A program made the translations under genes and the position numbers. 35,744 nucleotides of DNA from Minisyncoccota bacterium (GTDB lineage: Bacteria > Patescibacteriota > Minisyncoccia > Phycocordibacterales > UBA9973), in assembly GCA_016649835.1 (NCBI GenBank), contig JAENWX010000003.1, positions 1 through 35,744 on the forward strand. Direction: 5' to 3'. Below the pieces are notes generated by a model. That model was given only the letters and a program-made list of their open reading frames with translations. It was not told the origin of the DNA and did not search any database. Within the stretch, counting starts at the first letter, position 1. Each line of letters begins with the position of its first letter. Below, one piece after another: positions 143-35,311 of this stretch.

Positions 143-206
143 CTCAACTGGTTAGAGCACTCGCCTGTCACGTGAGAGGTTGCCGGTTCAAGTCCGGTCG
201 ACCGCG
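133..206 (+). tRNA. tRNA-Asp (GTC)
   Basis: Acceptor GCGGTCG/CGACCGC, D arm GCTC/GAGC, anticodon arm CTCGC-CT GTC AC-GTGAG, T arm GCCGG-TTCAAGT-CCGGT, discriminator G. CCA is not encoded. Confidence 0.96.
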
Positions 207-460
207 CAAATAATAAAAGCCTCCTTTTAAGGGGGCTTTTATTATTTGCGCGGTCGATAAAATGTGAAACATTTTAAGGACTTGAACGCCGGAGCAATAT
301 TTTGACAGTAGTTAAAATGCGAGGCGGTGCCCAGACAAATTTTTGTGTCGACAAAAATTTAGTCGCGGGAAAGATTCCGGTCGACATTCATATTTAGTCG
401 AGGTCAAGAAGCGCGAATGAGTACATTCGCCTACTTGGCACTCGCGCTCCGGTCGATACT
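198..460 (+). repeat. tRNA-Asp 3' structured trailer (tRNA-linked modular element)
   Basis: 24-bp inverted repeat 198-221/234-257 includes the tRNA 3' end. Antisense T-arm GGACTTGAAC at 278-287. Cassette GGTGCCCAGACAAA..TTTAGTCGCGGG at 326-369. Sense T-arm copies TCCGGTCGA at 376-384 and 448-456. Confidence 0.8.
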
Positions 461-470
461 CCCATAAAAA

Positions 471-498
471 ATACCCCTGTATAAAAATACAGGGGTAT
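471..498. terminator. Intrinsic terminator hairpin downstream of ORF 544-1032
   Basis: ATACCCCTGTAT-AAAA-ATACAGGGGTAT, with an A-run on the left that is the U-tract for the minus-strand gene. Confidence 0.7.
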
Positions 499-543
499 AG
501 AGATTAAAACCTCAATTTTTTTCTGCGAAATACAAAAAATAAT

Positions 544-1032
544 TTAAGCAGCTAAAGTTTTTGAAACCAAAGGATCAATTGGTAGAACAGCAGACGGGCT
601 ATTAGCGTTCCAATCACACCCAAGCCAAAAGTGGTCCCAGCGCCACTTACCACCGTACCAGTACAAGCACAGAATATAACGGCTACCGCTAGAGTTCCGA
701 AGAACAGTTCCGTCAAAAAAAATGTATGTCGTATTTCTATTTGTTTGCTCTTTCCATTTGGAAGGTATTAGAGTTTGGTTTTCCCAAAGTGTTTTAAAAA
801 CACCAACATCCAAGCGGATACGATTTGTTTTTGCTTTTAGACGTTTGAGTTTGTCTTCACCCTTAATGCTTTTTTCTCCCTTTTCCAAGGTTGAGTCAAG
901 CATCACGCAATTTAAATCGATTTCGGTGAGAGCAACTGCTCTTTCATCTTGTTCTAGAATAGACCATCCTTTACCAATATAGGTTGTTGGATCAAACGGA
1001 TCTGACCGGTCAATACTTACTTTACTACCCAT
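544..1032 (-). CDS. Hypothetical protein with DGR variable-region-like C-terminus
   Basis: 162-aa ORF ending LRNSSGSRYILCLYWYGGKWRWDHFWLGCDWNANSPSAVL, rich in NNC codons. Confidence 0.8.
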   Translation of the reverse strand: MGSKVSIDRSDPFDPTTYIGKGWSILEQDERAVALTEIDLNCVMLDSTLEKGEKSIKGEDKLKRLKAKTNRIRLDVGVFKTLWENQTLIPSKWKEQTNRNTTYIFFDGTVLRNSSGSRYILCLYWYGGKWRWDHFWLGCDWNANSPSAVLPIDPLVSKTLAA

Positions 1033-1057
1033 GATTTTATCTTTTTATTTGTTTGTT

Positions 1058-1075
1058 GAGAACAATATTGTTCTT
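1058..1075. promoter_or_regulatory. Palindrome GAACAATATTGTTC in the leader of ORF 544-1032 (second copy at 1914-1928)
   Basis: A perfect 14-bp palindrome preceded by TTTTATTTGTT lies at a similar distance upstream of both minus-strand ORFs. Confidence 0.6.
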
Positions 1076-1189
1076 TGTGTTTATTAAAGCACTATATTGC
1101 TTATTATGTCAATATGCCTATTTTTTCCTTTAAATTGAAATAAATCTATTGTCGCGTTTTCAGCAGAGTCCAATATGGTGTGCAAAAAT

Positions 1190-1217
1190 AAAAAGAGTAA
1201 CATTAGTTACTCTTTTT
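1190..1217. terminator. Terminator hairpin
   Basis: AAAAAGAGTAAC-ATTA-GTTACTCTTTTT, just past the stop of ORF 1223-1891. Confidence 0.75.
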
Positions 1218-1222
1218 AAAAA

Positions 1223-1891
1223 TTAAATGTGCTTTTTTATAAAAGCGAACCAAACAAAATTGTAATTCAAACTGCTTAAGTAATACAAATTTGCTTTGCG
1301 TTTAGTATTATTCCAACTCAGATTGCAAGCACTAGCTGTATTATATAACAAGCATCCGGTTGTCTCAACAACATACATTGAACTTGCTCCAAGCTCCATG
1401 TTAAGTTTTGGAAATTGTTCACCAATTGCAAATGGAACATGTGGAGTAGTTTTGAGTAATCCATTTTGTTTTCCCCAATCGCAAGCTTCAGGATAACTTC
1501 CCTTACCATTAATCCACTTAAACAAAACAATAACTTCATCAGTAATTTTGTTCTCTCTAGACTGATATAGATCTGCCACTTTTAGAGCCTTATGATCTAA
1601 ATCTGTTTGCGGTCCACCTGCCATTGCTGCCTCTTTGTATGACCTTGTGTAATCTACCTTAAGTTCAATTAAATGGACACGGGCTCCGATTTTATTTGCT
1701 TCAATTTGAAGCTCGTTAAACCAATTATATCCATTCTTAATCTCATCACAAAATCTTTTAACATCTTCAGGATTATTAAGAAACCTTACAAAAGCCTCTC
1801 TGGAAACTCCATTTTCTCTAGCTTTTCGAGCTAACTGCACGCCATTTCTATTTGTAACGTGCTTTTCTGAATTTACTTCATTCTGTTGCAT
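1223..1891 (-). CDS. Hypothetical protein (possible DGR-target-like C-terminus)
   Basis: 222-aa ORF with its own promoter-like TTGACG-18-TATAAT and a terminator. The Asn/aromatic-rich C-terminus ends WFAF. Confidence 0.8.
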   Translation of the reverse strand: MQQNEVNSEKHVTNRNGVQLARKARENGVSREAFVRFLNNPEDVKRFCDEIKNGYNWFNELQIEANKIGARVHLIELKVDYTRSYKEAAMAGGPQTDLDHKALKVADLYQSRENKITDEVIVLFKWINGKGSYPEACDWGKQNGLLKTTPHVPFAIGEQFPKLNMELGASSMYVVETTGCLLYNTASACNLSWNNTKRKANLYYLSSLNYNFVWFAFIKKHI

Positions 1892-1990
1892 AACGTCTAT
1901 TTTATTTGTTGTGGAACAATATTGTTCTTATTTATATTATAACATAAAATAAACACTTGCGTCAATGCATATATTTTACTCAATTTTTAA

Positions 1991-2024
1991 TTTAAAAAGA
2001 GTAGCCATAGCTACTCTTTTTAAA
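1991..2024. terminator. Terminator hairpin
   Basis: TTTAAAAAGAGTAGC-CATA-GCTACTCTTTTTAAA overlaps the stop of ORF 2020-2631. Confidence 0.75.
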
Positions 2025-2631
2025 TTACTCTCAATTCCTCAAAAAAGTTTTGATACATTTTTATCACTCGCCTACCTTCAACCTGGCTTAAAGAAAAGTC
2101 AGAACCGGTATGCGCTATTTGATTTCGAACCAAGTGTGCACTCCATGCATCTTGGATGCTTCTGTATCCACTCTCTTTAGCTCCATCTAAAAGCTCGCTT
2201 ACAGTTCCACCAGACAAACCATTTTCTTTTAAAATTTCTTCCATTAGAGAATCAGCCTCAATAATAGCAACTCTCCAGTCTGATTCATTTGGGCTTTCTA
2301 TTAAGGTCTGAATATAATGCCATCGTGGGTTTGAATTTCTATTTCTTTCTTTTTCTCTTAGATGAGCTTTGTGTATTTCGTGCTCGATTTCTTCCTTGTC
2401 GTAAATCTGGATTTCTATTAGTCTCACAATAGAAAAAATAATGATTGCTATTATTATAATAGACAAAATAGCCGATATTATACCAGCAATATTCCATGTG
2501 TTTGGATTCGATAAAAATTCAACTATCGATTGTGTATATTCAATTATTTTACTAAATACGTATTCAACATTTAAATAATTGGGATTAAACAAAGGCTTAT
2601 CTAATGCTGATTGTATTACGGTTTGCTCCAT
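2020..2631 (-). CDS. Hypothetical single-pass membrane protein
   Basis: 203-aa ORF with one hydrophobic helix (IAGIISAILSIIIIAIIIFSIV) followed by a helical domain (WRVAIIEAD..AW.AH.VRN.IAH). Confidence 0.8.
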   Translation of the reverse strand: MEQTVIQSALDKPLFNPNYLNVEYVFSKIIEYTQSIVEFLSNPNTWNIAGIISAILSIIIIAIIIFSIVRLIEIQIYDKEEIEHEIHKAHLREKERNRNSNPRWHYIQTLIESPNESDWRVAIIEADSLMEEILKENGLSGGTVSELLDGAKESGYRSIQDAWSAHLVRNQIAHTGSDFSLSQVEGRRVIKMYQNFFEELRVI

Positions 2632-2713
2632 CTCGTTAGAAGTAGAGAATCTTTAAATTCTCATACATTAAATTAATTAATAATCAAAATACTATTACAA
2701 TTCTTTAAAATAA

Positions 2714-2753
2714 ATCCCGTAAGCTATATGACATATATGACTTCTAACGGGAT
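2714..2753. repeat. Short member of the CCCGTTAGAAG/CTTCTAACGGG palindromic repeat family
   Basis: ATCCCGT...GACTTCTAACGGGAT. The right arm matches the arms ending at 8970 and 9679. Confidence 0.6.
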
Positions 2754-2765
2754 GCATACTTTATA

Positions 2766-4184
2766 TTATATATGTTTTTCAAAATCTTTCCCAATTGTAA
2801 AAAGGATATCCTCTCTCAAGAAAGGTGCCATTATATGAAAACCAAATGGTAGTCCTTCACTGTTTTTTCCTGATGGAATAGATATAGCTGGAATTCCGGC
2901 AATGTTAGCTGGAACTGAAAACAAATCAGCCAGGTACATACTAAGTGGATCTTTTGATTTTTCTCCAAATTTAAAAGGCATCATTGGTGAAGTTGGAGTA
3001 ACAATAGCATCAACTTCTAAAAATATTTTTGTTAGCTCATCTTTAATGGCATCGCGAACTTTTATGGCTGTATTGTAATAAGCATCATAATATCCATGAG
3101 AAAGAATATATGTTCCTAGTAATATTCTTCTGCGAACTTCTTTACCAAAACCTTTTCCTCTACTTTTTGTATAAACATCATAAAGATTTGCACCATCCTC
3201 GTGTAATCCATATCGAATACCATCATAACGTGCCAAGTTACTAGAAACTTCAGCGGGAGATATTATGTAATAAACAGCAAGAGAATATTTAATTAAAGGT
3301 AATGAAACATCTACTATTTCGTAACCTGCTTCTTCTAACTTTTTACAGCTTTCGTTAAAATTTTTAATTATTTCAGGATCAGTCCCCTCTGTACTTAAAA
3401 ATTCTCTAGGAATACCTATTTTCTTTTTAAGTGGCTGTGACTCTAATCTGTTTTCTTTTTTTATTGAAGTACTATCTTTTTCATCATAATCATTAATAGC
3501 GTTAAAAAGAATTTCAGCATCTCTTACTGTTTTACCAAAAGGACCTACCTGGTCGAGAGAGCTTCCCATGGAAATGATTCCAAAGCGAGAAACAGCTCCA
3601 TATGTTGGCTTGAGTCCTACTAGGCCACAATAAGATGCAGGCTGGCGTATTGAGCCTCCTGTGTCACTTCCTAGGGATACCAGGGCTCCATTCATAGCAA
3701 CTGCAGCTACTGAACCTCCCGAAGAACCACCTGGTACACGTGTTATATCTAGCGGGTTTTTTGTATTACCAAAGGCACTTGTCTCGGTGGAAGAACCCAT
3801 AGCAAATTCATCCATGTTTGTTCTTCCTAAAAATACTGCACCTTGTTTTTTGAGTTGTTTTACAATACCAGAATCATAAGTTGCTTTATAATTTTCAAGT
3901 ATCAAAGATGAAGCTGAAGCGATATGCCCTTCAAAAAGCATGTTGTCTTTTAGTGCCATAGGGATGCCTGTCATTAAAGTATCAGTGCCATTTTTAAACA
4001 TTTCTTCGGCAATTTTTGCTTGCTCTAATACATCATTATAAATTTCTCTATATGCATTTATCTCTTCATTTTTTTCTTTGATAACTTCCAAATAAGAATT
4101 TACTAATTGGGTTACTGTAAATTCACCGCTCTTAAGAGACGCATGGGCTTTTTCAATTGTTAAATTTTTTAAATCTATCTGCAT
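2766..4184 (-). CDS. gatA: Asp-tRNA(Asn)/Glu-tRNA(Gln) amidotransferase subunit A
   Basis: Amidase signature GGSSGGS, LGSDTGGSIRQPA, NMDEFAMGSS, FGKEVRRRILLG. Confidence 0.97.
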   Translation of the reverse strand: MQIDLKNLTIEKAHASLKSGEFTVTQLVNSYLEVIKEKNEEINAYREIYNDVLEQAKIAEEMFKNGTDTLMTGIPMALKDNMLFEGHIASASSLILENYKATYDSGIVKQLKKQGAVFLGRTNMDEFAMGSSTETSAFGNTKNPLDITRVPGGSSGGSVAAVAMNGALVSLGSDTGGSIRQPASYCGLVGLKPTYGAVSRFGIISMGSSLDQVGPFGKTVRDAEILFNAINDYDEKDSTSIKKENRLESQPLKKKIGIPREFLSTEGTDPEIIKNFNESCKKLEEAGYEIVDVSLPLIKYSLAVYYIISPAEVSSNLARYDGIRYGLHEDGANLYDVYTKSRGKGFGKEVRRRILLGTYILSHGYYDAYYNTAIKVRDAIKDELTKIFLEVDAIVTPTSPMMPFKFGEKSKDPLSMYLADLFSVPANIAGIPAISIPSGKNSEGLPFGFHIMAPFLREDILFTIGKDFEKHI

Positions 4185-4218
4185 TTTAGTTACTAGTATT
4201 TAACGGCTAGTTGCTAAC

Positions 4219-4518
4219 TTATAATATTTGTTTAACTTTTAGGAATCCATCTTGAGTGTCTGGCATTTCTGCAATAATCTTTTCTGTATATTCTCCCCGA
4301 CTATTTGCAACAACATCTTCACGCATTACATTGTGCAAAAAATAGTTTTCTGGTTTTTTATTTTCTAGGGAAATTTTCTCGCTCAATTTTAATGCCTCTT
4401 GCACCTGACCAACATATGCCAAAATAGGATCAAAATCTTTTGCGATTTTTGTCATTTCTTCATCGCTCATATCAATACGAGCTAAATCAGCTAATTTTTT
4501 AACATCTTCTAGTTGCAT
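4219..4518 (-). CDS. gatC: Amidotransferase subunit C (start revised to MQLEDV at 4518)
   Basis: VKKLADLARI..., NVMRED, GFLKVKQIL motifs. Adjacent to gatA. An extended -10 lies 6 nt upstream of ATG 4518. Confidence 0.92.
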   Translation of the reverse strand: MQLEDVKKLADLARIDMSDEEMTKIAKDFDPILAYVGQVQEALKLSEKISLENKKPENYFLHNVMREDVVANSRGEYTEKIIAEMPDTQDGFLKVKQIL

Positions 4519-4565
4519 ATGTTTAGAATAACATATTTTGATAATTATATAAAACAAAAAACGTT

Positions 4566-4620
4566 ATTTACTTTTTACATATTTCTTACGCTATCGCGCA
4601 CAAATGTGTAAAAAGTAAAT
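4566..4620. repeat. Imperfect 55-bp palindrome, TACGCTATAGCGTA family
   Basis: ATTTACTTTTTACATATTT-CTTACGCTATCGCGCAC-AAATGTGTAAAAAGTAAAT. Aligns with 5124-5160. Confidence 0.8.
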
Positions 4621-4622
4621 TA

Positions 4623-5105
4623 TTATCTACCATCATATCCTTTCTCTAGTTTAAAAGTTTTTAGATTATCCTTTAATCCAATTTTTTTGACATAGTCCAT
4701 AAATTCTTTAGGTAAAGGTGACGGGCCAACCCAAACACTTCTTTGAATCATAATGTATCCAAATTTATGTAAATGTCTACGAAACCAATCCCTCTCCGGC
4801 TTTTTATCTTCTGGAATATCATACATAACCAATAGGTTTTTTGGTGCATTTTGAGGATATGAAAATTCAAAAATCTTTTGTGACAATAATTTATCTTTGA
4901 GATATTTTTGACCTTTTTTGGTAAGAATAATATTTTTATCCTCTGTGCTTAAATAGCCTTCATCACAAAGTGAATAATATGCATTTTTAATAGATTTTGA
5001 ATTCTTATTTTTAAAAACTGGTAAACCAAAAATATTTACATCGATGCCTTTATAATTAGCAAATTTGGTATTAAATAAATTAAGAAGATCTTGTTTTATT
5101 GTCAT
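4623..5105 (-). CDS. PaaX-like protein: short winged-helix region plus Cas2-like domain
   Basis: N-terminal L...GYL...IILTKKG wing. C-terminal LVMYDIPEDKKPERDWFRRHLHKFGYIMIQRSVWV matches the PaaX central/Cas2-like motif. No cas1 or CRISPR array nearby. Confidence 0.8.
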   Translation of the reverse strand: MTIKQDLLNLFNTKFANYKGIDVNIFGLPVFKNKNSKSIKNAYYSLCDEGYLSTEDKNIILTKKGQKYLKDKLLSQKIFEFSYPQNAPKNLLVMYDIPEDKKPERDWFRRHLHKFGYIMIQRSVWVGPSPLPKEFMDYVKKIGLKDNLKTFKLEKGYDGR

Positions 5106-5123
5106 AATTTTATTATATCATAA

Positions 5124-5159
5124 TACATATTTCGTACGCTATAGCGTACGAAATATGTA
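5124..5159. repeat. Perfect 36-bp palindrome over the promoter region of the PaaX-like gene
   Basis: TACATATTTCGTACGCTA|TAGCGTACGAAATATGTA, immediately upstream of the extended -10 (5112-5120). Confidence 0.9.
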
Positions 5160-5190
5160 AATTAAAATAAATACAATATAAATATTTTGT

Positions 5191-5226
5191 TTAAGTAGGA
5201 TTAAGTAGGATTAAGTAGGATTAAGT
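5191..5226. repeat. 10-bp tandem repeat (TTAAGTAGGA) x3.6
   Basis: Read directly from the sequence. Confidence 0.9.
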
Positions 5227-5279
5227 GTAATAAATGAAGCTTAAATCATTTATAAAAATTTATTTTGGAAACAATTAAG

Positions 5280-5316
5280 AAATACAATGATTAAAATATT
5301 TTTAATCATTGTATTT
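5280..5316. terminator. AT-rich hairpin downstream of ligA
   Basis: AAATACAATGATTAAAA-TAT-TTTTAATCATTGTATTT. Confidence 0.5.
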
Positions 5317-5340
5317 GGAAAAAATTGATAAATATAATAC

Positions 5341-7503: not shown

Positions 7504-7642
7504 CCGGTAGTGAAAAATGGCATTATGGATTCACCATTTTTATCTTATATTTTACAAAAAATTATAATATCTAATAAATCTATTAATAAAATTCCCGTTA
7601 CACAACTATGCCATTTTATACTACGGGATTCATAAAAACAAA

Positions 7643-8134
7643 TTATTCTGAGAAATTAACTACGACTTCACGTTCAACTGTTCTTAAATTAGTTTTATTA
7701 CAAATATTATATCCTTTTGCTGATATTCTTGTTTTTGTAATTTCATTTGGATAAACTCCTGTAATCGTTTTTGTAACATCTATTCTAAAACATGGATCAG
7801 TGGAGGTTCCATTTGCAAGAGTAGGATAAACAGTATAACCAGTTGGAGTAGTAGATACAACTAAATTTTCACCAGCACAAGTCCAATTACCAACAATAGC
7901 TCCATATACTCTGTCTGCATAAAGCCCACAATCTGAAGCTGAGTCGGCTTGATAAAAAGCAGTTTGTGAATCTTTTGCTAAAGAAGAAAGTACGAGTTGC
8001 TTATAAGCTGTGTTTGATAACCCAGCAGTAATAACAGAAATAGCGCTCACAATAACAACTGTAAATAAAATTGCGTATCCTTTTTGTTTATTAATTTTTA
8101 TAAAATTATTAATCATTTTATTTATATCTGCCAA
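7643..8134 (-). CDS. PilX-like minor pilin (start possibly MINNF at 8116)
   Basis: QKG|YAILFTVVIVS prepilin-like N-terminus lacking Glu5, and an SQTAFYQADS motif typical of the PilX N-terminus. Confidence 0.8.
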   Translation of the reverse strand: MADINKMINNFIKINKQKGYAILFTVVIVSAISVITAGLSNTAYKQLVLSSLAKDSQTAFYQADSASDCGLYADRVYGAIVGNWTCAGENLVVSTTPTGYTVYPTLANGTSTDPCFRIDVTKTITGVYPNEITKTRISAKGYNICNKTNLRTVEREVVVNFSE

Positions 8135-8980: not shown

Positions 8981-8983
8981 TAT

Positions 8984-9689: not shown

Positions 9690-10359
9690 AATTTGAAACA
9701 CTTATTTGACCATTGTTTGAGATAGTTACTGTTTTTGTGGTTACAGGAATTTCGCTAGTTGCTAATATTATTTGTATATATGATATGCCTTCCATAGCAT
9801 CACAGCTGGTATTGGTCACAGCACTTTTATAACAAAAAACTGGCTCTGGGTTTGGGCGTTTAAAAACTATATCCAAAGTCCCAGTTGCGGGTAGTGTCTT
9901 ATCAACAAGATAACCTCCTACATAATATTTTATTCCTAATATTTTATCTGTACTTGCTATATTTAAAACCTCAAGACATTCACTTCCGGTAGTAGGAGCT
10001 CCACAAACTGTATTATAATCATACATTTTATTTTGGACCACATCCATATCTGCAAATAAAATAAATGCTTTATTAGTGCCAGAGTAGGTACCAACAGGTA
10101 GAGGATTTACAGTGAAATGAACTCCGTAACCAACATCAAAAACTGAGTCAGTACTATGAACTCCAATGGCGTAGCCTTGAGCTTTTCTGACTGATAAAGC
10201 AATATCATCGGCTAGGTTTTGGATAGATAAAGAGGATCGGAATTTACCATAGTCAAAAATAGTTATCCCCGAGATAATCACGAAAATGAAAATCACAACC
10301 AAGAGTTCAACTAGGGTTACTCCTTTATTATATTTTATTTTGTGAAAATTTTTAAACAT
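9688..10359 (-). CDS. FimT/PulH-like minor pilin
   Basis: KG|VTLVELLVVIFIFVII; LADDIALSVRKAQGYA; C-terminal VTISNNGQI. Confidence 0.85.
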   Translation of the reverse strand: MFKNFHKIKYNKGVTLVELLVVIFIFVIISGITIFDYGKFRSSLSIQNLADDIALSVRKAQGYAIGVHSTDSVFDVGYGVHFTVNPLPVGTYSGTNKAFILFADMDVVQNKMYDYNTVCGAPTTGSECLEVLNIASTDKILGIKYYVGGYLVDKTLPATGTLDIVFKRPNPEPVFCYKSAVTNTSCDAMEGISYIQIILATSEIPVTTKTVTISNNGQISVSN

Positions 10360-10377
10360 TATATTAGTATCTAATAA

Positions 10378-11190
10378 TTATATACTAAATAATCTAATTA
10401 AAGAAAAGATATCTAAATTAAATATGAAAACAATAAGGGCGCTAACTATCAGAAATGGAGCAAAAGGTATTTCTGACTTCATATTTAGCTTATTTCTGGA
10501 TAAAAACATCGCTGTTAAGCTTATAATAGTACCTATCCAAAATGATAGTATTACCATAGCAATACCAGCGTATAGTCCTAGCAACCATCCAATACCCAAC
10601 ACCAGCTTCCCATCACCAAGACCCATAAGTCTTCCTTTTGAAAACAACCAAAGTAGTGCAAATGGTAGAGCAAGCACAGGACCAGCAAGCAATGCGGAAG
10701 TAGATGGCATTACAAATAAAGAACCAAAAGGTAGCGGATTTATAAATGTTGAAATAAGTGAAACAACTATAAAAATAAAAACAAGTTTGTCTGGGATTAT
10801 TTTGTGGCGTAAGTCGTAAACTGATATCACTATAAGTAGTGAAAAGATAAACATATACGACACAATAAAGAAAAGATATATATTACTTGAAAAATATAAA
10901 ATGGGCATAAACTTATATGCGATGAGCGCAAAAACAATACCAGAAATAACTTCTACGAGAGGATATTGGTGAGATATTTTACTTGCGCAACGACGGCACT
11001 TGCCTGACTGAATTAGAAAACTAAGAACTGGAATAAGTTCGTACCATCTGAGGTGCTTGTTGCAAGTCATACAAATAGACCTACCCCTAACGATAGTCAT
11101 ACCTGTATTAAATCTATAAATAACTACATTTAAAAAACTTCCGATAATTGTGCCCATTAAAAAAATAAAAATAAATATAAGTATGTACAT
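10378..11190 (-). CDS. pilD: Prepilin peptidase (A24)
   Basis: GSFLNVVIYR, RSICMTC, LIPVLSFL..GKCRRC, YDLRHKIIPD, MGLGDGKL, IPFAPFL. Confidence 0.96.
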   Translation of the reverse strand: MYILIFIFIFLMGTIIGSFLNVVIYRFNTGMTIVRGRSICMTCNKHLRWYELIPVLSFLIQSGKCRRCASKISHQYPLVEVISGIVFALIAYKFMPILYFSSNIYLFFIVSYMFIFSLLIVISVYDLRHKIIPDKLVFIFIVVSLISTFINPLPFGSLFVMPSTSALLAGPVLALPFALLWLFSKGRLMGLGDGKLVLGIGWLLGLYAGIAMVILSFWIGTIISLTAMFLSRNKLNMKSEIPFAPFLIVSALIVFIFNLDIFSLIRLFSI

Positions 11191-23377: not shown

Positions 23378-23419
23378 AATTCCCCCAATCCTACGCTATA
23401 GCGTAGGATTGGGGGAATT
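23378..23419. repeat. Perfect 42-bp palindrome with TACGCTATAGCGTA core between convergent genes
   Basis: AATTCCCCCAATCCTACGCTA|TAGCGTAGGATTGGGGGAATT. May also act as a terminator. Confidence 0.9.
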
Positions 23420-25658: not shown

Positions 25659-25686
25659 ATTATACACTTTTAGGTGAAATTGTCAA
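25659..25686 (-). promoter_or_regulatory. Sigma70 promoter for the dksA-like gene
   Basis: TTGACA-16 nt-TATAAT on the minus strand. Confidence 0.7.
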
Positions 25687-25747
25687 GATACATATATTCC
25701 ACCCTCTTTACTCAAAAAGACCTGTATTTTAAAAGACTAATTATATA

Positions 25748-26055
25748 AGAACGAAAAATCTTTCGAATCTTGCACGCACTAGGTGAGACCGTGAGTACAC
25801 TTTTCGCCTATTACATAGGCAGGTACTTTTCCGCCTATGGCAAGGAAAAGTCTTTCGAATCTTCCTCACGGTTCGATTTACTAATCGCACACGCGAGACC
25901 GTGAATACACTTTTCGGTCCCTACTGGACCAGTACACCTTTTCGTTTCGGTTAACACCGAAAAACGAAAAGCTTTTCGAATCTCGCACGAAAGCCAAGCA
26001 GTTGGCTTTCTCGTCTCCACATATTTAAAAAGCCCTAGCGGGTTTTTTAAATATG
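25748..26055 (-). repeat. tRNA-Ser(GCT) 3' modular trailer
   Basis: Hairpin pairing with the tRNA 3' end, AACTGCTT-loop hairpin at 25989-26010, then two complete and one truncated AGATTCGAA-cassette-TCACGGTCTC modules. Confidence 0.85.
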
Positions 26056-26142
26056 CGGAGCCGGCGAGATTCGAACTCGCGAGGGGTTTTATCCCCTGCA
26101 TCTTTAGCAAAGATGTACCTTAGACCACTCGGACACGGCTCC
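26056..26142 (-). tRNA. tRNA-Ser (GCT)
   Basis: Acceptor GGAGCCG/CGGCTCC, anticodon arm CATCT-TT GCT AA-AGATG, long variable arm AGGGG-ATAAAA-CCCCT, T arm GCGAG-TTCGAAT-CTCGC, G73. Confidence 0.95.
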
Positions 26143-26232: not shown

Positions 26233-26319
26233 GGATGAGTGGCCGAGAGGCTTAAGGCAGCGGTTTACTAAACCGCCGTCCCTTTACCGGGACCGTGAGT
26301 TCGAATCTCACCTCATCCG
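26233..26319 (+). tRNA. tRNA-Ser (ACT), unusual A34 anticodon
   Basis: Acceptor GGATGAG/CTCATCC, anticodon arm GCGGT-TT ACT AA-ACCGC (ACT at 26267-26269), variable arm GTCCC/GGGAC, T arm GTGAG-TTCGAAT-CTCAC, G73. Confidence 0.92.
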
Positions 26320-26640
26320 CATGTTGAAAAAATTGCCCCTATTAAGGGGCTTTTTTCTTATGCGGATGCGAAGACGTGAACTGCTCATTTAGTAAAATGA
26401 CCTACTGGGTTCACGTCTGGGTGAGATTCGAACAGCGGAGTCATATTTTGTTAGCAAACAAAATAGACGAGCTGGTGCCCAGACAAAACTTTTTGACGAA
26501 AAAGTTTTAGTCGCGGGCGAAACATGTACTCATGGTCTCGGGAGGAAGATTCGAAAGACTTTTCCTTGCCGTAGACGGAAATACCTCATTTAGTAAAATG
26601 ACCTACTGGGCGCCGCAGTATTGGCGAATCTCACCGCCTC
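26320..26640 (+). repeat. tRNA-Ser(ACT) 3' modular trailer
   Basis: Antisense 3' end at 26360-26368, antisense T arm at 26420-26433, cassettes shared with the Asp and Ser(GCT) trailers, and sense T-arm copy CGAATCTCACC at 26625-26635. Confidence 0.85.
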
Positions 26641-26672
26641 CCCATTCACACATATTCTGATATAATATTTAC

Positions 26673-26801
26673 ATGAAAATGGAACTCAATAAAACCAAAA
26701 CACTAATACTTCTTTTTATATTTATTACAATTGGTGGAATTATTTTATACGGAGAAAATAATCCTAATAACTTTTCGCCATTAGATTACATAATTAAATA
26801 A
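26673..26801 (+). CDS. Small membrane protein, 42 aa (not in the ORF track)
   Basis: MKMELNKTKTLILLFIFITIGGIILYGENNPNNFSPLDYIIK*. TGATATAAT lies 6 nt upstream. Confidence 0.55.
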   Translation: MKMELNKTKTLILLFIFITIGGIILYGENNPNNFSPLDYIIK

Positions 26802-26805
26802 GTTT

Positions 26806-27633
26806 TTATTTCAATGATTCTACAAAGCGGATTATAGTTTCTTTAATTTTTGCTGACTTATGAGACTTGGCTATAAATGAAATTTTTATAGAAACTTCTC
26901 CTTTTTCGTTGTAATCGAAATCTATTTTATATTTCTTTCCAGCGTAACCTTTAAAGTGCCCCACTTTTAAAATACTTCTTTTGGGTAATAGCTCTTCTAA
27001 ATAATCTTCAATTTTTTTCATCCAGGCATCAAAGTTATCTGGAAAATTCTCATTATTGTAATAAATGGATAAAGATATTTTATTGTAATCTCCAGACTTG
27101 AGTTGCTGCTGATTAACTATCTGACCCAAAAACATAAAATTGGGAATATGGTGGAGCCTTCCGTTGTATTCTCCGTTTTCGTCTTTTCCAATAAGATCAG
27201 TATACAAAGGTTTTACTCTTAAAATTTCTCCCAAAAAATTATCTATTTGAATATTATCTCCAGATTTATAATTTGATAAAATATAAAAAAATGAAACTAA
27301 AGAAGCAAGAGGTTCTTTTAAGATTATAATAAGTGCACCTGTAGCAACTGCCAAAATACTAAAAGCTTGCACATTGTATGCACCCAACACTGCAATAATA
27401 CCTATAAAAATAATTACAAAACGAATAATATCAATGTGCTGGATTTGTTTATTGTGTTCAACTGACAAATCTTCTATTTGTTCAATAGATTCAATGCTTT
27501 CTTTTTTAAGCTTAAATTCTTTTACTTTTTGACGCTTTACGTGTCTCAAAACTAACTCTATAAATATAAACAACAATAAGAGTGCCGCGGCACTTAGATT
27601 TTGCCCATATGAAAATGATTGAAAGAATGACAT
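26806..27633 (-). CDS. MscS-family mechanosensitive channel
   Basis: Three TM segments, then YKSGDNIQIDNFLGEI..., HIPN. Start revised from 27660 using the -10 position. Confidence 0.82.
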   Translation of the reverse strand: MSFFQSFSYGQNLSAAALLLLFIFIELVLRHVKRQKVKEFKLKKESIESIEQIEDLSVEHNKQIQHIDIIRFVIIFIGIIAVLGAYNVQAFSILAVATGALIIILKEPLASLVSFFYILSNYKSGDNIQIDNFLGEILRVKPLYTDLIGKDENGEYNGRLHHIPNFMFLGQIVNQQQLKSGDYNKISLSIYYNNENFPDNFDAWMKKIEDYLEELLPKRSILKVGHFKGYAGKKYKIDFDYNEKGEVSIKISFIAKSHKSAKIKETIIRFVESLK

Positions 27634-27728
27634 ATGCTGATTATATCTTAAAAAGAACAAAATATAAACAGGGTCTTTTATTCTAAAATAAAATATTTCT
27701 TGTTATTTTATATGATATAATTTAAAAC

Positions 27729-29915: not shown

Positions 29916-29950
29916 AAAATACCCCATAAGGGGTATTTTTTATTCAAAAT
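29905..29950. terminator. Bidirectional terminator between recG and the large ORF
   Basis: 21-bp inverted repeat ATTTTGAATAAAAAATACCCC-ATAA-GGGGTATTTTTTATTCAAAAT. Confidence 0.85.
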
Positions 29951-29953
29951 TAT

Positions 29954-32900
29954 TTATTTTGTTTTTTCTTGTTCAGCTTTAGTTATCTTTATATTGCCGT
30001 TCTTTAATTCTCCTTCTAATTCATTTTTATCATACGACACTAAAGTTTCTACTCCCTTGCTGTCTGTATAGATTGCTTCAATTTTAGTTTTTCCAAAAAA
30101 TCCAAAGAATCCGCCGCTTGAAATTACTTTTGTAACTTTAAAGGAACCACTTTCACTCTTAAATTCGGTACCTATTTTTGATAAATCTTTTGCAGTAAAT
30201 ACTTTTTCTGCAGTAGATATATTTGTAGGAGTTTTTCCTAAGACTTCCTCTGGTTTCTTTTTTTCTTCTGTTGTTACTGTTTTTTGTTCAACTTCTGTAG
30301 TTTTCACAATTTCAGGGTTAACTTCAGACTCACCCTTATTTATACCTCTACCATCCTCTGCTTCACTTTTATCTAAACGTTTAATTCCTGCATCAGTAAA
30401 TTCAACAACATCACCTGCTTTGTATGTTTCGTTTGAAGTTTCTACTTTTTTCGAGATACTTAGAAGGCCATCTAATTCATCTCCGATTTTCATTACTTCT
30501 TCCTTGTTCCAAGTTATATTTTTACCTTCTTCAATATGATTAAGTTCGTTATATCTTTTTTTACCATAAGCGGACTTAAAATCTTTTTCAGTTAAAGTAA
30601 GGACTCCTTCGGATGATTGCTCTTTTTTATTTATCATCTTAAGGTCATCATACATTCCGTCATATTCTTCTTTGCTAATTTTATTAACAACATCTTTTTT
30701 CTCAATCTTATCTATATCATCTGCCACAACCGGAGCTACATCAATTTTATCTATATCTTCTTTGGTGACAGTAGTTACATCAATTTTATTTATATCTTCT
30801 TCAGAGATTTGTTCTGGTTTTATTTCCTTTGCTTGATTAACTTTTCCAAGAGGTCTATGAGCAACCAACGGAACAAACAATGGCATCTCTGTTCCCATAG
30901 TTGGACTAAGATTATCGATAGTTACATCTACATGTGAGGGAACGATATCTTTTATTTTATCTAGGCCTTCTCCAACCACTGTACTAAGAGTTCGAATATG
31001 TTCAACTCCATTTTTATCTATTCCCATTTTCTGAACAATCTCAATAAATTTTGCATGTGAGACCATATGTCCGTCAGGGCCAGGGCTAAAAATTTGTTGC
31101 ATTAGTGGATTATTGTGGTCAAAAATAATATTTCCACTTGCATCAATAGGAACAGGAATTCCTTGGCCTTGATGTGATCCGTCTAGAAATATCATCGCCA
31201 TTAGGTTACCCTTACCCATTGCTTCTTGAGCATTTACAGACAAACCATCTTGAAATGAACCTCCTGGTGTCATATGAGAAATATTTAAAACATAATCTCC
31301 ATTTTCTGCTACACCAGTTCCGTTTATACCACCCCAATGAGTACCTAGCTCATTTAAGTCTGCTCCGAGTAATTTGCCAGTCTCAGGATCTACGTTCATG
31401 CCTGTATCGTTCCCATACCACAAATCATGATTAACATTTATTGTTTCTCCAGGGTGGTTTGCTAGCCAGTCTTGCGCACTACCCGTTATTTCTTTAGTAG
31501 AATCAATCACGCTATGAGTAGCTGTTGCTAAAATTCCATCTTGTCCAAGTCTTTGAATAGATGCTGCATCTAAACCTCCATTTACATCAAATGTTGGCTG
31601 AAAATGACTTGTTACAACATGGTCTCCTCTTAATAAATCAAACGTACCATCGGCATTATTTACCAAACTAGTGCCTTCTGGAATATTTATATCATGTCCA
31701 TTAAATACTGCTGTAATTGCATTCCCCATACCCATATGAGATGGGTTTCCAGACACCCAACCACGAATATGTTCAAATGGTGTTTGAATAGAAGCATGAC
31801 CCTCTTCTGGCTTAACTAAACCTTCAACAAAACCTTGAACATCATCTTTAAAGAAAGCTAGACCTTCTTGAATTGTTCCTCCAATAATTAAACCGACTAC
31901 AGCTGTTTGGGCCATTTTTTTAGCGATACGTCCTGCTTTATATTTACGGAAAGCTTTATCCTGAGCAGTAATTCCTTTTTCTCCACCTAGCAATGTATCT
32001 TCGATAACTTGTGTTTGTTCTGCCAAAAGAGCTTCAAAAGTTTTTCCGTCTTTCAAACCATCTTTTAGATCACCTTCAAGTCTTTTGCGTAATTCTACTT
32101 TTGCTCTTGCTGTTAGAATAGTAAGGTCAGTGCTCTCCTTTTCAACATTACCAATTCCTGAATATGAAATAAGGTCTATTTTATTTCTTGCATTAAGTCC
32201 TTTGCGCGCATCTATTTCACCTAGACTTGCAATAATTTTATCTATATCTTCTTGTTTAATATCTTTTGGAACATCTTTACCGTCTTTATCTATATCAAAC
32301 ATTAAATCGCGTAAATTTTGAGCAAGAACATTTGAGCTTTCCATTGTGTATGCAAATCTATCTAATTGTTCTCTACTCTTATCACCTTTTTCTGTTTCAC
32401 TCCCTTCAGCTGCTTCAATATCGCGTTGTTTTTTATCAAGAACAACCTTCCTACTTGCACCTACGCCTGCAGATAGAGCAGCAAGAGCTACCGAACCACC
32501 TAAAGAAAATAATGCTGCCGCCTTACTAGTCATAAGCTTCTTGCTTAATCCCACCGAAAGAGAATAGGTTAAGCCAATTGCAGTAGAAACAACTGCTGGG
32601 CTGATAAATTTACCAACAGGAGTTTTATTTGTCCAATCCACCGCTTTATCTATCATATTAAAATGAGCTTCTGTTTTAAGACTACTTTTTGCCTTACCAA
32701 TAACAATTTCTAAATCAAAATCTAACTCTTCTATTTTAGCACCATGCTCTATAGCAAGACGTGCATTTTGAGCGATTTCAAAAAGATTGTCTGCGTAATG
32801 ATTAGCACCTTTTAATAAATCTTCACCTTTTAAAATCTTTATTGAATTATTTTTACCAGTTTTAAAAGCCTCTTCATCTATCTTGCTCATTGCATAATCA

Positions 32901-33394
32901 TTTATCAAACTTTTTAGCTCAGTTTTTGCTTTTATTGTTTCTGGGTCTTTATCGTCGAGCATTTTTTTAGCTTCTCCTTCAGCAAGTGTACCTTCATAGT
33001 CGGAAGTGAAACGGTCAGAAATTGCTTTCATAGTATTTTCATGAGCTGTTTTGTCTTTGTTTTCTAATCTTCCTGTATAAATATTTCCAGTACTATCTAT
33101 TTCCTCTTTTACTTTATTAACTTCCTTTTGTCTATAATATTCATCAAAAAATGTATGTTTCCACATTTTTTTAAAGAAACCAATTTTATTGCTTCCGTAT
33201 GATTCAGCCATATTTGCATCAGCTGCTTTTCTGGCTTCATTTTCTGCTAACTCTGATATATTTACTATGGACACACCTTGTTTAACTTTCTCTAGTGCGC
33301 TTTGCTTAGCTGATTCATTAATCTGCATTTCTGAATTTCCATCTTTTATATCATTATTTTCGTTATTTATTATTTTTTTTGGAGGTATATCCAT
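29954..33394 (-). CDS. Large hypothetical membrane-associated protein (1146 aa)
   Basis: Charged helical N-terminus, hydrophobic segments near aa 265-320 and 495-515, a Gly/Asp/His-rich middle region and a charged C-terminus with 13-aa repeats. Confidence 0.85.
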   Translation of the reverse strand: MDIPPKKIINNENNDIKDGNSEMQINESAKQSALEKVKQGVSIVNISELAENEARKAADANMAESYGSNKIGFFKKMWKHTFFDEYYRQKEVNKVKEEIDSTGNIYTGRLENKDKTAHENTMKAISDRFTSDYEGTLAEGEAKKMLDDKDPETIKAKTELKSLINDYAMSKIDEEAFKTGKNNSIKILKGEDLLKGANHYADNLFEIAQNARLAIEHGAKIEELDFDLEIVIGKAKSSLKTEAHFNMIDKAVDWTNKTPVGKFISPAVVSTAIGLTYSLSVGLSKKLMTSKAAALFSLGGSVALAALSAGVGASRKVVLDKKQRDIEAAEGSETEKGDKSREQLDRFAYTMESSNVLAQNLRDLMFDIDKDGKDVPKDIKQEDIDKIIASLGEIDARKGLNARNKIDLISYSGIGNVEKESTDLTILTARAKVELRKRLEGDLKDGLKDGKTFEALLAEQTQVIEDTLLGGEKGITAQDKAFRKYKAGRIAKKMAQTAVVGLIIGGTIQEGLAFFKDDVQGFVEGLVKPEEGHASIQTPFEHIRGWVSGNPSHMGMGNAITAVFNGHDINIPEGTSLVNNADGTFDLLRGDHVVTSHFQPTFDVNGGLDAASIQRLGQDGILATATHSVIDSTKEITGSAQDWLANHPGETINVNHDLWYGNDTGMNVDPETGKLLGADLNELGTHWGGINGTGVAENGDYVLNISHMTPGGSFQDGLSVNAQEAMGKGNLMAMIFLDGSHQGQGIPVPIDASGNIIFDHNNPLMQQIFSPGPDGHMVSHAKFIEIVQKMGIDKNGVEHIRTLSTVVGEGLDKIKDIVPSHVDVTIDNLSPTMGTEMPLFVPLVAHRPLGKVNQAKEIKPEQISEEDINKIDVTTVTKEDIDKIDVAPVVADDIDKIEKKDVVNKISKEEYDGMYDDLKMINKKEQSSEGVLTLTEKDFKSAYGKKRYNELNHIEEGKNITWNKEEVMKIGDELDGLLSISKKVETSNETYKAGDVVEFTDAGIKRLDKSEAEDGRGINKGESEVNPEIVKTTEVEQKTVTTEEKKKPEEVLGKTPTNISTAEKVFTAKDLSKIGTEFKSESGSFKVTKVISSGGFFGFFGKTKIEAIYTDSKGVETLVSYDKNELEGELKNGNIKITKAEQEKTK

Positions 33395-33427
33395 GTTAGT
33401 AATTTAAGTTAGTGAATAATATACTAT

Positions 33428-33754
33428 TTATGAAAGATAAGTTTGTTTAAATACAATAAGTTCTGTTGCTATTAACTGTGATAAACCTGGAATATTATCT
33501 GAGCAAAACTTTTGCATCTCAGTATCTGAAACATCTTTATCCATTAAATCATTAAATTCTGCAAGTTTTTCTTCTGAAAGATTACTAATGATAACCATAT
33601 TTACGGCGTCTTCTACTCTACTCAATAAATCCTTCTTGATTTGATCAATAACTTCCTTTTCTAAATCTGCTGGATAATTTTTCTCTGCAACTAGACGGTC
33701 AACAAACATTTGTAAATCTAAACTCTCACCTGTTTTTTTTGTTTCTTCGTTCAT
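33428..33754 (-). CDS. Small acidic helical protein (DUF5663-like, from memory)
   Basis: 108-aa ORF with TTGACA-18-TATAAT upstream (33831-33860). Probably co-transcribed with the large ORF. Confidence 0.75.
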   Translation of the reverse strand: MNEETKKTGESLDLQMFVDRLVAEKNYPADLEKEVIDQIKKDLLSRVEDAVNMVIISNLSEEKLAEFNDLMDKDVSDTEMQKFCSDNIPGLSQLIATELIVFKQTYLS

Positions 33755-33910
33755 AATATAAATAGTTAATTATTAATTTTAATTATATTCATTATATACT
33801 TATTTGCCAAAGCAATATAATTGTTATTATATTATAACATATTTATATACATAATGTCAATGGATATAAATGACCAGTAAATACAATTTATTTAATTTTG
33901 AGTATAAAAA

Positions 33911-33937
33911 ATACCACTAAGTTAAACTTAGTGGTAT
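33911..33937. terminator. Terminator after the LysM-like gene
   Basis: ATACCACTAAGT-TAA-ACTTAGTGGTAT with an A-run on the left. Confidence 0.7.
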
Positions 33938-33959
33938 GTTTTTGGTTAAGAAGTTGGGA

Positions 33960-34742
33960 TTATTTCCCTTCTTCTTTTAATGGCTCGGTTTTTTGTTCTT
34001 CAACAACAGGGGCAGGGGCAGGTTTTTCTACTCCATGATTAAAAAATTTTGCAGACATTACAAAAAGGTTTTCATTTTTCTCAATAAACAATCGAGAAAG
34101 TTGATTCTTTTTTGCACTATCTGACAAAATATCCAGTGCATGATCCTGGAAATCTTGCTCGCGTCCCAAAAGAGTTGCCCGTGTGGCTAGGTCAATATTG
34201 CCTCCGTTATGGATAGCAATATGAACAGCAGTAGATGAACTAATTTCTACTTTATTATTTTTTTGATAGTAATCTATCAACCAAACAACAAATGCAATTA
34301 GTGCTCCAATCAGCAACCATCCCCACCAAGGAATTCCTGAATCAGATTTTATTGGTGTAGAGGTTGTTGTTGTTACAGTTTCTTCAACCGTATAACTTGG
34401 AATAAGAATTTCGTTTCCGATTTTAACAACCTCTCCAGGATAGATTATTACAATCCATTGCTTTCTTTCTGGATTGAAATAAATTCTGCCGGGAGCATTT
34501 AGAAATGGGTTCATGGCTATTATTTCACGCCATTTAAATCCTGTTCCGTATTCCTTTTCAGAATAACCCCAAACAGTTTCACCTTTTACAACCACTTTGG
34601 TTTTTATAGTAAAACCATTCATGTCCGAAATGGAGGTTTTGGTTGTTGTTGTCGTAGTTACAACCTTTGATGAAGGTTGGTTACCACATGAACTAATCAT
34701 AAACGCCATAACGGCAACGGTTAAAAATACAATTTTTCTCAT
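33960..34742 (-). CDS. Putative lipoprotein with LysM-like domain and internal TM helix
   Basis: MRKIVFLTVAVMAFMISSC signal/lipobox, VVKGETVWGYS..YG....WREIIAMNP...IYPGEV, TM segment IPWWGWLLIGALIAFVVWLI. TTGACA-16-TATAAT at 34801-34828. Confidence 0.78.
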   Translation of the reverse strand: MRKIVFLTVAVMAFMISSCGNQPSSKVVTTTTTTKTSISDMNGFTIKTKVVVKGETVWGYSEKEYGTGFKWREIIAMNPFLNAPGRIYFNPERKQWIVIIYPGEVVKIGNEILIPSYTVEETVTTTTSTPIKSDSGIPWWGWLLIGALIAFVVWLIDYYQKNNKVEISSSTAVHIAIHNGGNIDLATRATLLGREQDFQDHALDILSDSAKKNQLSRLFIEKNENLFVMSAKFFNHGVEKPAPAPVVEEQKTEPLKEEGK

Positions 34743-34841
34743 CTTTACGTTTTTTGTTTTCAAATTTGGTCCTTAGTTGGAAGCCAAACGATTTAGGTAT
34801 ATTATAGCAGATTAGAGAAAATTGTCAAGCGGGTGATGTGG

Positions 34842-35234
34842 CTCTAGGACCGCGAGTACGCAGTAGGTCAGTACTGGACCAGTACAAATTTTATGGCGGA
34901 CACTGTCGTCAGGAATAATTTGCTTTTCGTCAAAAGCAAATTTTCACGACCCTCAATCAGTAGATTGACCTACTGGGCGACTCGGCTCGTCAGCCTCCGT
35001 CTTTATTTCTTTTATTTAAAAAGAAATAACCCTACTGGACCAGTACACCTTTTCGAACCATAGACGAGGACCGTGAGTACACTTTTCGGCTACCACGTAG
35101 CCAGGTACTTTTCGCTCCGATATCAATCGGAGAACGAAAAGTCTTTCGAATCCTAGACGCAGGCAAAGCAGTTTGCCTGCTAGGGCGGACCATATTAAAA
35201 AACCACACACTTTTCAGTGTGTGGTTTTTTAATA
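34842..35234 (-). repeat. tRNA-Ile(TAT) 3' modular trailer
   Basis: 29-bp inverted repeat 35182-35210/35217-35245 includes the tRNA 3' end. AACTGCTT-loop hairpin at 35159-35180, antisense T arm at 35145-35156, cassette ending TGTACTCACGGTCCT, terminal sense copy TCCTAGAG at 34842-34849. Confidence 0.85.
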
Positions 35235-35311
35235 TGGTCCGCCCTCTAGGATTCGAACCTAGGACCCCAGAGGTATAAGCTCTGTGCTCTAACCAACTGA
35301 GCTAAGGACGG
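35235..35311 (-). tRNA. tRNA-Ile (TAT)
   Basis: Acceptor CCGTCCT/AGGGCGG, anticodon arm CAGAG-CT TAT AC-CTCTG (35275-35277), T arm CTAGG-TTCGAAT-CCTAG, A73, CCA encoded. Confidence 0.93.

Follow-up and report, generated by a model that had tools for sequence, protein, structure and literature searches.

The window analysed in this study is a stretch of 35,744 nt that forms one whole contig (JAENWX010000003.1, C21) of the draft genome of a Minisyncoccota bacterium (GCA_016649835.1, hereafter G000). It carries four tRNA genes, for Asp(GTC), Ser(GCT), Ser(ACT) and Ile(TAT), each followed on its 3' side by an array of hairpins and partial copies of the tRNA itself. These arrays, here called trailers, are the subject of this report. 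ARAGORN located the four genes where a first-pass annotation of the sequence had placed them, and the strings cited in that annotation were found on reading the sequence. Its description was right in the order of the parts, in flanks that match the cognate tRNA and in cassettes common to unrelated tRNAs; the type A strings at 326-369 and 26474-26517 are indeed alike. A small hairpin was present at all four loci, as described; AACTGC had been claimed for three of them, and the Asp hairpin lacks an AACTGC loop. G000 is 735 kb long (32.5% G+C, 56 contigs, 92%-complete), and ARAGORN detected 35 tRNAs and a tmRNA in it.

We read 300 nt on the 3' side of every tRNA gene in G000. About two-thirds of these genes, and the tmRNA gene, share one common grammar. 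With X denoting the T-stem 3' strand plus the acceptor 3' strand, L the T-loop, and X' and L' their reverse complements, the typical order is tRNA(...L-X)-T-X'a-S-X't-L'-core-L(56-60)-Xt-Xa. The hairpin T pairs the tRNA 3' acceptor strand with its antisense copy; in G000 it is nearly always a predicted bidirectional intrinsic terminator, and its stem continues into X:X'a to reach 24-30 bp. The inverted copy corresponds to positions 54-74 of the neighbouring gene, ends at T54 and is usually split at 65/66, exactly between its acceptor and T-stem parts, by S, a 25-nt hairpin that usually has the loop CTGC within AACTGCTT. Where S is present, the spacing from acceptor to T arm is a constant 33 nt in G000 and 30-33 nt in other genomes. 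A shared structured core of type A, B or C follows the inverted copy. The direct copy comprises tRNA positions ~56-74. It begins at C56/G57 and reproduces whichever T-loop variant its tRNA has; in B cores of the 'long' kind, its T-loop part is interrupted at 59/60 by P3, a mini-hairpin of 14 nt. The tRNA end is thus present three times, in direct, inverted and direct orientation.

The units are non-coding, 150-400 nt in size and filled with hairpin modules, small ones being nested in the loops of S and of the core hairpin P2. They form a mosaic of palindromes with alternating orientation, like that of repetitive extragenic palindromes (REP) and bacterial interspersed mosaic elements (BIME). 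Direct repeats of 12-21 nt, which are the tRNA 3' end itself beginning in the T-loop, bound each unit in the manner of attL and attR. The arms vary by tRNA and track its sequence; terminal inverted repeats conserved across the family, as in miniature inverted-repeat transposable elements (MITEs), are not present. The nested modules are 24 nt long, consist of a hairpin plus CCTACTGG or CCTACGGG (window 26385-26408; G000 C16:2842-2968 and C45:~1150-1260) and enter after CTG in the S and P2 loops; their opposite strand reads GTAG plus a hairpin, like REP units. At many loci of relatives (L032, L037, L054 and L058, and tRNA-Arg(CCT) and tRNA-Arg(TCT) of G221, a closed 742,714-bp genome with 13 cores, from another family), the tip of the T hairpin is GCGAAGC, which as DNA forms an unusually stable mini-hairpin.

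Core B was searched with a model, R1, scored in bits, and its copies in G000 also with an iterated nhmmer profile. Twenty copies align with a closing helix P0 (X't:Xt plus part of L':L) followed by P1, P1a, P2 and P3, and compensatory changes occur in 24/30 pairs. Among 73 copies from 53 sources, 92.7% of the cells are paired, compared with 64.9% after shuffling and 39-45% with slid partners, and 26/30 pairs covary. The unpaired motifs GTACTG, YGTAR (P2 loop) and CTGC (S loop) are conserved across the order while the stems vary. The helices contain 1540 Watson-Crick cells and, outside three fixed T-G columns, 24 cells of G-T type and 26 of A-C type, so that neither strand has an excess of G-U. 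Such pure Watson-Crick stems are the expectation for DNA palindromes under arm-to-arm correction and are unlike most structured RNAs. Core B is thus structured; in a search of Rfam 15, only tRNA and tmRNA reached the thresholds and nothing credible was obtained over the trailers up to E 5. The fold predicted for tRNA-Glu with its trailer is -132.9 kcal/mol (z = -14.2), and in the predicted equilibrium fold the 3' half of tRNA-Glu itself pairs with the inverted copy.

Table 1 Features of the four tRNA loci in the window.
Feature	Position	Strand	Remarks
tRNA-Asp(GTC)	133-207	+	ARAGORN, Rfam
Asp hairpin T, terminator-like, 28-bp stem	198-257	+	Left arm holds the tRNA 3' acceptor strand; antisense copy X'a at 248-257
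Asp small hairpin in S position, without AACTGC loop	258-276	+	Read from sequence
Asp antisense copy of T-loop and part of T-stem 3' strand, GGACTTGAA	278-286	+	
Asp core type A	287-369	+	Conserved 3' half 326-369 recurs at 26474-26517
Asp sense copy of T-stem 3' strand and acceptor start, TCCGGTCGA	376-384	+	Second copy at 448-456 after partial cassette
tRNA-Ser(GCT)	26055-26142	-	ARAGORN
Ser-GCT hairpin T and antisense acceptor copy	26012-26063	-	2 mismatches to cognate tRNA
Ser-GCT S hairpin	25989-26010	-	Conserved loop AACTGCTT
Ser-GCT exact antisense T-loop and T-stem 3' strand	25975-25986	-	
Ser-GCT core B copy 1 (P0, P1, P1a, P2, P3)	25889-25990	-	R1 105.3 bits; covariation
Ser-GCT core B copy 2, second unit of tandem array	25779-25869	-	R1 79.6 bits
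tRNA-Ser(ACT)	26233-26320	+	ARAGORN, Rfam
Ser-ACT hairpin T, predicted bidirectional terminator	26314-26368	+	Right arm ends in antisense acceptor copy 26362-26368
Ser-ACT S hairpin	26373-26417	+	Loop with nested 24-nt hairpin module 26385-26408
Ser-ACT exact antisense T-stem 3' strand and T-loop	26420-26432	+	
Ser-ACT core type A	26433-26517	+	Weak R1 overlap
Ser-ACT short B-like core with nested module	26556-26635	+	End is sense copy CGAATCTCACC, 26625-26635
tRNA-Ile(TAT)	35235-35311	-	ARAGORN, Rfam
Ile hairpin T, predicted bidirectional terminator, 30-bp stem	35182-35245	-	Includes antisense acceptor copy 35182-35192
Ile S hairpin	35159-35180	-	
Ile exact antisense T-stem 3' strand and T-loop	35145-35156	-	
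Ile core B	35061-35160	-	R1 100.5 bits
Ile further units: degenerate antisense T arm, type C core, P3 mini-hairpin	34841-35060	-	Weak R1 match 34840-34960
Ile sense copy CCTAGAGC, end of trailer	34841-34848	-	

The match between the arms and the cognate tRNA was evaluated with the 31 tRNAs of G000 that have at least 250 nt downstream. Exact matches were counted for an 11-nt probe for the antisense T arm, an 8-nt probe for the antisense acceptor and a 12-nt probe for the sense copy. The antisense T arm was found in 19/31 cognate trailers versus 11/930 non-cognate ones, the antisense acceptor in 15/31 versus 8/930, and the sense copy in 7/31 versus 2/930. At 22 loci of other genomes, the respective values were 14/22 versus 5/462, 13/22 versus 5/462 and 14/22 versus 0/462, and exact probes in G221 gave 11/36 versus 9/1260. 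Two genomes without cores were used as controls. In a sister genus of the same family, represented by a 100%-complete genome, the three probes each matched 0/32; in a closed genome of another class they matched 0/40, 0/40 and 1/40, in the same order. As these values are close to zero, the hairpin over the acceptor strand belongs to the element and does not reflect a general habit of terminators. The inverted copy also tracks a substitution in the Ile tRNA between species, AGGGCGG/AGGACGG being matched by CCGCCCT/CCGTCCT. The cognate antisense T arms and sense copies described for four tRNAs therefore hold genome-wide, far above the non-cognate level, in a pattern larger than that reported, and the flanks co-vary with the cognate T arm across loci. 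The term 'customised', used in the first-pass annotation, is better replaced by 'copied from the neighbour': the sense copy at the far side repeats the tRNA end directly, and some flanks agree with a tRNA other than the adjacent one.

A 12-mer specific to core B matched 25 places in G000, 17 of them within 800 nt of a tRNA; the others lay behind the tmRNA gene, at six contig-end places and, by chance, once inside a gene. The nhmmer profile detected 41 copies, confined to tRNA/tmRNA 3' flanks or contig ends and lacking the general extragenic dispersal of REP and BIME. Cassettes away from tRNAs with unrelated flanks were looked for, and none was found. R1 detected core B in 40/40 other genomes of the genus (1-37 copies), in 76/150 genomes of the order (up to 21 copies) and in 2/150 genomes from the rest of the phylum, both marginal. 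Among 29 loci from 29 other genomes, 23 cores followed a same-strand tRNA at a distance of at most 100 nt, and two more lay 227 and ~580 nt downstream; ARAGORN found no tRNA at the remaining four, two of which (L035 and L042) have a tRNA-like 3' end directly upstream. By eye, ~24/37 tRNA/tmRNA genes of G221 carry elements. A blastn search of phage and plasmid collections returned no match to the elements, and none of nine pattern matches in IMG/VR was confirmed by R1, a tRNA being nearby in one unrelated case only. No description of such elements was found in full-text searches of the literature or in Rfam.

Comparison of orthologous loci, another check proposed in the first-pass annotation, revealed patchy occupancy and, at tRNA-Ile(TAT), swapped cores: of 10 species, four carry an element, each with a core of its own, one carries a different cassette and five lack both. 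In four congeners, 21/31, 7/32, 5/30 and 3/31 tRNAs are occupied. Twenty isoacceptors are found in all four of these genomes; six are occupied in none, seven in one, six in two, one in three and none in all four. Cores are most similar to those of other tRNAs in the same genome (median best identities 0.73 and 0.79) rather than to those of another genome (0.60 and 0.63). The within-genome value is the higher one for 15/16 and 10/13 cores, and ortholog pairs reach 0.52-0.60. Whole units occur in perfect tandem repeats bounded by direct copies of X. Some flanks are chimeric: in G000, the X'a and S found at Gly-CCC are those of Gly-TCC; in G004, the far copy at this locus is the end of another Gly tRNA; and the tmRNA gene bears an Arg-type X't (antisense T arm). 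When contigs from four DNA sequencing runs were compared with the window, only repeat-induced cross-joints were seen; a candidate variant with one unit deleted, whose sides were short, was set aside.

We also searched for an enzyme whose presence follows that of the elements. The REP-associated tyrosine transposase (RAYT)/Y1 family was rejected as the mobiliser, as it shows no association with the element among 150 genomes of the order: the element is present in 76 and Y1 in 90, and the 46 genomes with both compare with 45.6 expected (Fisher p = 1.0). Thirty carriers lack Y1, and G221, with its 13 cores, has none either. G000 has five RAYT-like Y1 open reading frames (ORFs) of 216-235 aa (C34:18318-18968, C47:~10150-10820, C40:20281-20955, C7:4293-4973 and C56:20345-21049), each with a perfect palindrome of its own on either side, none of them related to the trailers. 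The TnpB zinc ribbon (PF07282), which would point to the omega-RNA of an IS200/IS605 element (TnpB/IscB), gave no match in this 92%-complete genome. As for a MITE with a short target-site duplication and an autonomous insertion sequence, the direct repeats here are the tRNA end, and no link was found to Y1 or TnpB, the two transposase families searched. The only reverse transcriptase in G000 is of the diversity-generating retroelement (DGR) type (C43:13817-15136, minus strand) with an adenine-rich, template-repeat-like stretch upstream; it was rejected, having a homologue in the non-carrier G282 and none in G284. The only Phage_integrase-family gene is Xer-like, lies on another contig and occurs in carriers and non-carriers alike, and no integrase is encoded in the inserts.

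A small GIY-YIG nuclease, which in G000 lies beside tRNA-Ala and, by eye, tRNA-Asp and which was picked up by the proteome comparison, was weakly enriched (61/76 carriers versus 50/74 non-carriers, p = 0.09) and was also rejected; the multi-copy carriers G029 and G203 lack it. One GIY-YIG gene with a Pfam match lies ~45 nt upstream of tRNA-Ala (G000 C44:885-1091), and another is found ~200 nt behind tRNA-Gln in G221. RNase P protein seemed carrier-specific by tblastn, but PF00825 is present in all four genomes compared. Of 759 G000 ORFs, 21 are present in G221 and absent from G282 and G284, including two Fic genes, alanine racemase and transporters; the reverse comparison gave 8/690 and no nuclease. 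These two-versus-two comparisons, a coarse screen with four genomes, yielded no nuclease or recombinase that matches carriage.

Taken together, these observations divide our confidence about equally between one reading and all others. In the reading we favour, the trailers are non-autonomous palindromic repeat DNA built of hairpins, which takes its arms from the 3' end of the adjacent tRNA and spreads from one tRNA/tmRNA flank to another. This reading also limits the family to the 3' flanks of tRNA and tmRNA genes in a single order of Candidatus Paceibacteria and takes the matching arms to be copies of the adjacent gene and not a design. The family looks like an undescribed, fast-turning-over repeat family rather than a required tRNA-processing signal. 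We base this on the direct-inverted-direct anatomy together with dispensability, turnover, homogenisation, tandem amplification, chimeric flanks and symmetric stems. The first-pass annotation had offered two explanations. The one invoking non-autonomous elements that copy tRNA 3' ends gains from the patchy, fast turnover, the homogenisation, the tandem and chimeric units and the element-less sister genus. Cis-acting refolding modules, its other proposal, lose ground, given that no tRNA is occupied in all four congeners, the terminator precedes the element and a G-U excess is absent.

As a mechanism, DNA synthesis would fold back or switch template at the palindromic hairpin T and would copy the end of the tRNA in reverse until the T-loop is reached. 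This loop, which is universally conserved, could then serve as a short homology for core exchange between loci, the direct repeats of the tRNA end would permit tandem amplification and loss, and correction between palindrome arms would keep the stems perfect and the arms tRNA-like. Transcripts of the trailers would be incidental.

Several results weigh against repeat DNA of this kind. None of the searches for a transposase, reverse transcriptase or nuclease (Y1, TnpB, reverse transcriptase, Xer-like, GIY-YIG and proteome screens) gave one that co-varies with the element. No filled/empty pair was seen between near-identical strains, so that mobility itself is inferred. Every strong R1 match is on the strand of the tRNA even though the core lies between inverted repeats; template switching at random would be expected to yield cores in both directions. 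The modules sit at exact positions in tRNA numbering (54, 56, 59/60 and 65/66) at loci of differing sequence, which asks for a structure-aware process or for one ancestor with overwritten arms. The conserved unpaired motifs imply selection on them. Finally, T is not a terminator at 7/22 loci of relatives and at several loci of G221, where it is a short mini-hairpin flanked by A/T, often GCGAAGC; at these loci, tRNA and element must share a transcript.

Fixed orientation, exact positions of the modules and conservation of the unpaired motifs also fit a different explanation, to which we assign a clear minority of our confidence: a functional structured RNA on the tRNA strand, with a closing helix formed by the antisense and far sense copies that mirrors the acceptor and T stems of the cognate tRNA. 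In the modelled 'shadow tRNA', S would take the place of the tRNA body and the core that of the T-loop. Such an RNA could aid 3' processing of the pre-tRNA or termination; alternatively, enzymes that recognise tRNA ends, such as RNase P, RNase Z, the CCA-adding enzyme or tRNA-targeting nucleases, could take it as a substrate or decoy. S lies exactly at the acceptor/T-stem junction of the 5' strand, a position that is meaningful only in this fold, and loops and junctions are conserved while the stems covary. The predicted fold of tRNA-Glu with its trailer is very stable, one often finds a terminator after the far copy where T itself is none, and tmRNA, which shares the T arm and acceptor, also bears the element. 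The pure Watson-Crick stems, the incomplete occupancy in congeners, the element-less sister genus and the swapping of cores at orthologous loci speak against a functional RNA. In addition, strong predicted bidirectional terminators precede the elements in G000 and no promoter-like site lies inside them; a helix extension replaces a true T-loop, and the usual elbow contact of RNase P and RNase Z is missing; and the equilibrium fold that pairs the tRNA 3' half with the antisense copy would be expected to harm the tRNA.

A bolder proposal, which we consider improbable to a slightly greater degree, is that the element is either a per-tRNA mimic transcribed as an acceptor/T-stem 'shadow' (decoy or substrate), or enzyme-less mobile DNA with a T-loop homing anchor and arms rebuilt from the host tRNA. 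In the mimic version, it could deceive or be processed by enzymes and parasites that recognise tRNA 3' ends, among them RNase P, RNase Z, the CCA-adding enzyme, tRNA-cleaving toxins or tRNA-site integrases.

Scars of site-specific integration are very unlikely. They would make the region from the T-loop to the tRNA 3' end an attB, the units being decayed remnants or miniatures mobilised in trans by a tyrosine recombinase, which agrees with the direct repeats that bound each unit and with the use of tmRNA. A further point in favour comes from locus L034 (G033:C21, ~1400-2270, minus strand), where a ~480-nt segment with an ORF for a small membrane protein separates tRNA-Asn from a second, degenerate copy of the tRNA's 3' end, and a normal element follows that copy; larger inserts thus also use the repeated tRNA end. 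The units are, however, small and non-coding, the sole Xer-like gene lies elsewhere and is shared with non-carriers, conservative recombination makes no inverted copy of its site, a separate matching attP would be required for each of over 20 different tRNAs, and nothing similar was found in phage or plasmid collections. We give almost no credence to guide-RNA-like relics of an RNA-guided mobile element (TnpB/IscB omega-RNA, or the homing CRISPR RNA of a CRISPR-associated transposon) with the core as scaffold and the tRNA-derived arm as guide: a conserved structured scaffold does abut ~20 nt matching a tRNA gene, and the T-loop is located where the transposon- or protospacer-adjacent motif would be, but neither a TnpB-type zinc ribbon in G000 nor an association with Y1 was found, and the arms are mutually complementary and so would pair together, not with a target. 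TIGR-Tas arrays were also rejected, as their 36-nt box C/D units, in the cited part of their description (PMC12045711), are quite different.

In the repeat-DNA interpretation, the arms are rebuilt from the neighbouring gene, which lets a single set of cores serve more than 20 different tRNAs, and the family offers a natural system for the growth and spread of palindromes by template switching in tiny genomes. The elements explain assembly breaks at tRNA loci of these bacteria, and they caution annotators against taking the tRNA-like 3' fragments for scars of integration. If the structured-RNA explanation is true instead, a new class of tRNA mimic would exist in the Candidate Phyla Radiation.

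Long palindromes are abundant in G000, which contains 129 with stems of at least 16 bp in 735 kb, a genomic setting that also favours the repeat-DNA reading. Two other families have a conserved centre, ...CTACGCTATAGCGTAG... and ...CAAACTCTGCA(NN)TGCAGAGTTTG..., with variable, perfectly paired outer arms and ~10-15 copies each (window 23378-23419; G000 C6, C8, C13, C36, C47 and others). Perfect fold-back palindromes with stems of 48-83 bp lie at contig ends (C4:1-169, C35:1-142, C50:11174-11315 and C29:1-100), C50 folding back through tRNA-Lys; such ends are probably assembly artefacts and were not used as evidence. Many other contigs of G000 end inside trailer elements.

In the window itself, positions 1-140 contain the 3' end of an ORF that runs into tRNA-Asp, with its TAG stop inside the tRNA 5' end; by eye only, its C-terminus resembles a small GIY-YIG protein (UPF0213-type). 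Unusual anticodons are seen in tRNA-Ser(ACT), which has unmodified A34 and stands beside a divergent tRNA-Ser(GCT), and in tRNA-Ile(TAT). The latter is conserved across relatives, and Ser(ACT) also occurs in two other genomes of the order. Perfect 12/12 sigma-70-type promoters (TTGACA, 16 nt, TATAAT) are located at 25659-25686 and 34801-34828, both on the minus strand and directly after the last trailer unit. They read into the next gene, and the genes 3' of these two trailers are thus independent of read-through.

Among known systems, tRNA-like RNAs and acceptor/T-arm minihelices include tmRNA, YrlA and plant t-elements. The closing helix predicted here equals acceptor plus T stems, with the same discriminator and trailer; it differs in that the modelled helix is a perfect duplex of the 3' strand (G3-U70 of tRNA-Ala becomes A-U) and a helix extension replaces the T-loop. 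At tyrT of E. coli, tandem 178-bp repeats contain 19 nt of the tRNA-Tyr 3' end. These resemble the trailers in their direct copies of a tRNA 3' end and in tandem amplification, but they occupy a single locus and have neither an inverted copy nor cores common to other tRNAs. In att sites of elements that target tRNA and tmRNA genes, a direct repeat of the tRNA 3' end from the T-loop bounds the insert, and tmRNA is also a target. The trailers share the bounding repeat and the use of tmRNA, and differ in lacking an integrase and cargo, in the extra inverted copy, and in having the same cores at more than 20 tRNAs per genome.

In fungal mitochondria, mobile hairpin modules such as GC clusters and double-hairpin elements (PMC4478555) occur. 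They are similarly tiny, encode no transposase, nest in each other and in structured regions and turn over fast; unlike the trailers, they are not known to be tied to tRNA 3' ends or to have target-derived arms. Inverted triplications formed by origin-dependent inverted-repeat amplification (ODIRA) arise, according to the cited account (PMC11790251), by template switching at short inverted repeats and give a direct-inverted-direct segment. Their segment order and their junctions at hairpin-forming inverted repeats are the same as here; in the trailers, the segment is ~20 nt and not kilobases, dozens of loci are involved, foreign cores lie at one junction, and template switching is only a proposed mechanism. 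REP, BIME and REPIN elements, which are mobilised by RAYT (Y1) transposases (PMC2817692, PMC3116915), differ from the trailers, in which the arms are copied from the adjacent tRNA, only tRNA/tmRNA flanks are used and there is no link to Y1. They resemble them in being built of short hairpin modules outside genes, whose stems vary while short motifs are conserved, in mosaic arrays of units that alternate in orientation, in many copies downstream of genes, and in the GTAG plus hairpin that is read on the opposite strand of the nested modules.

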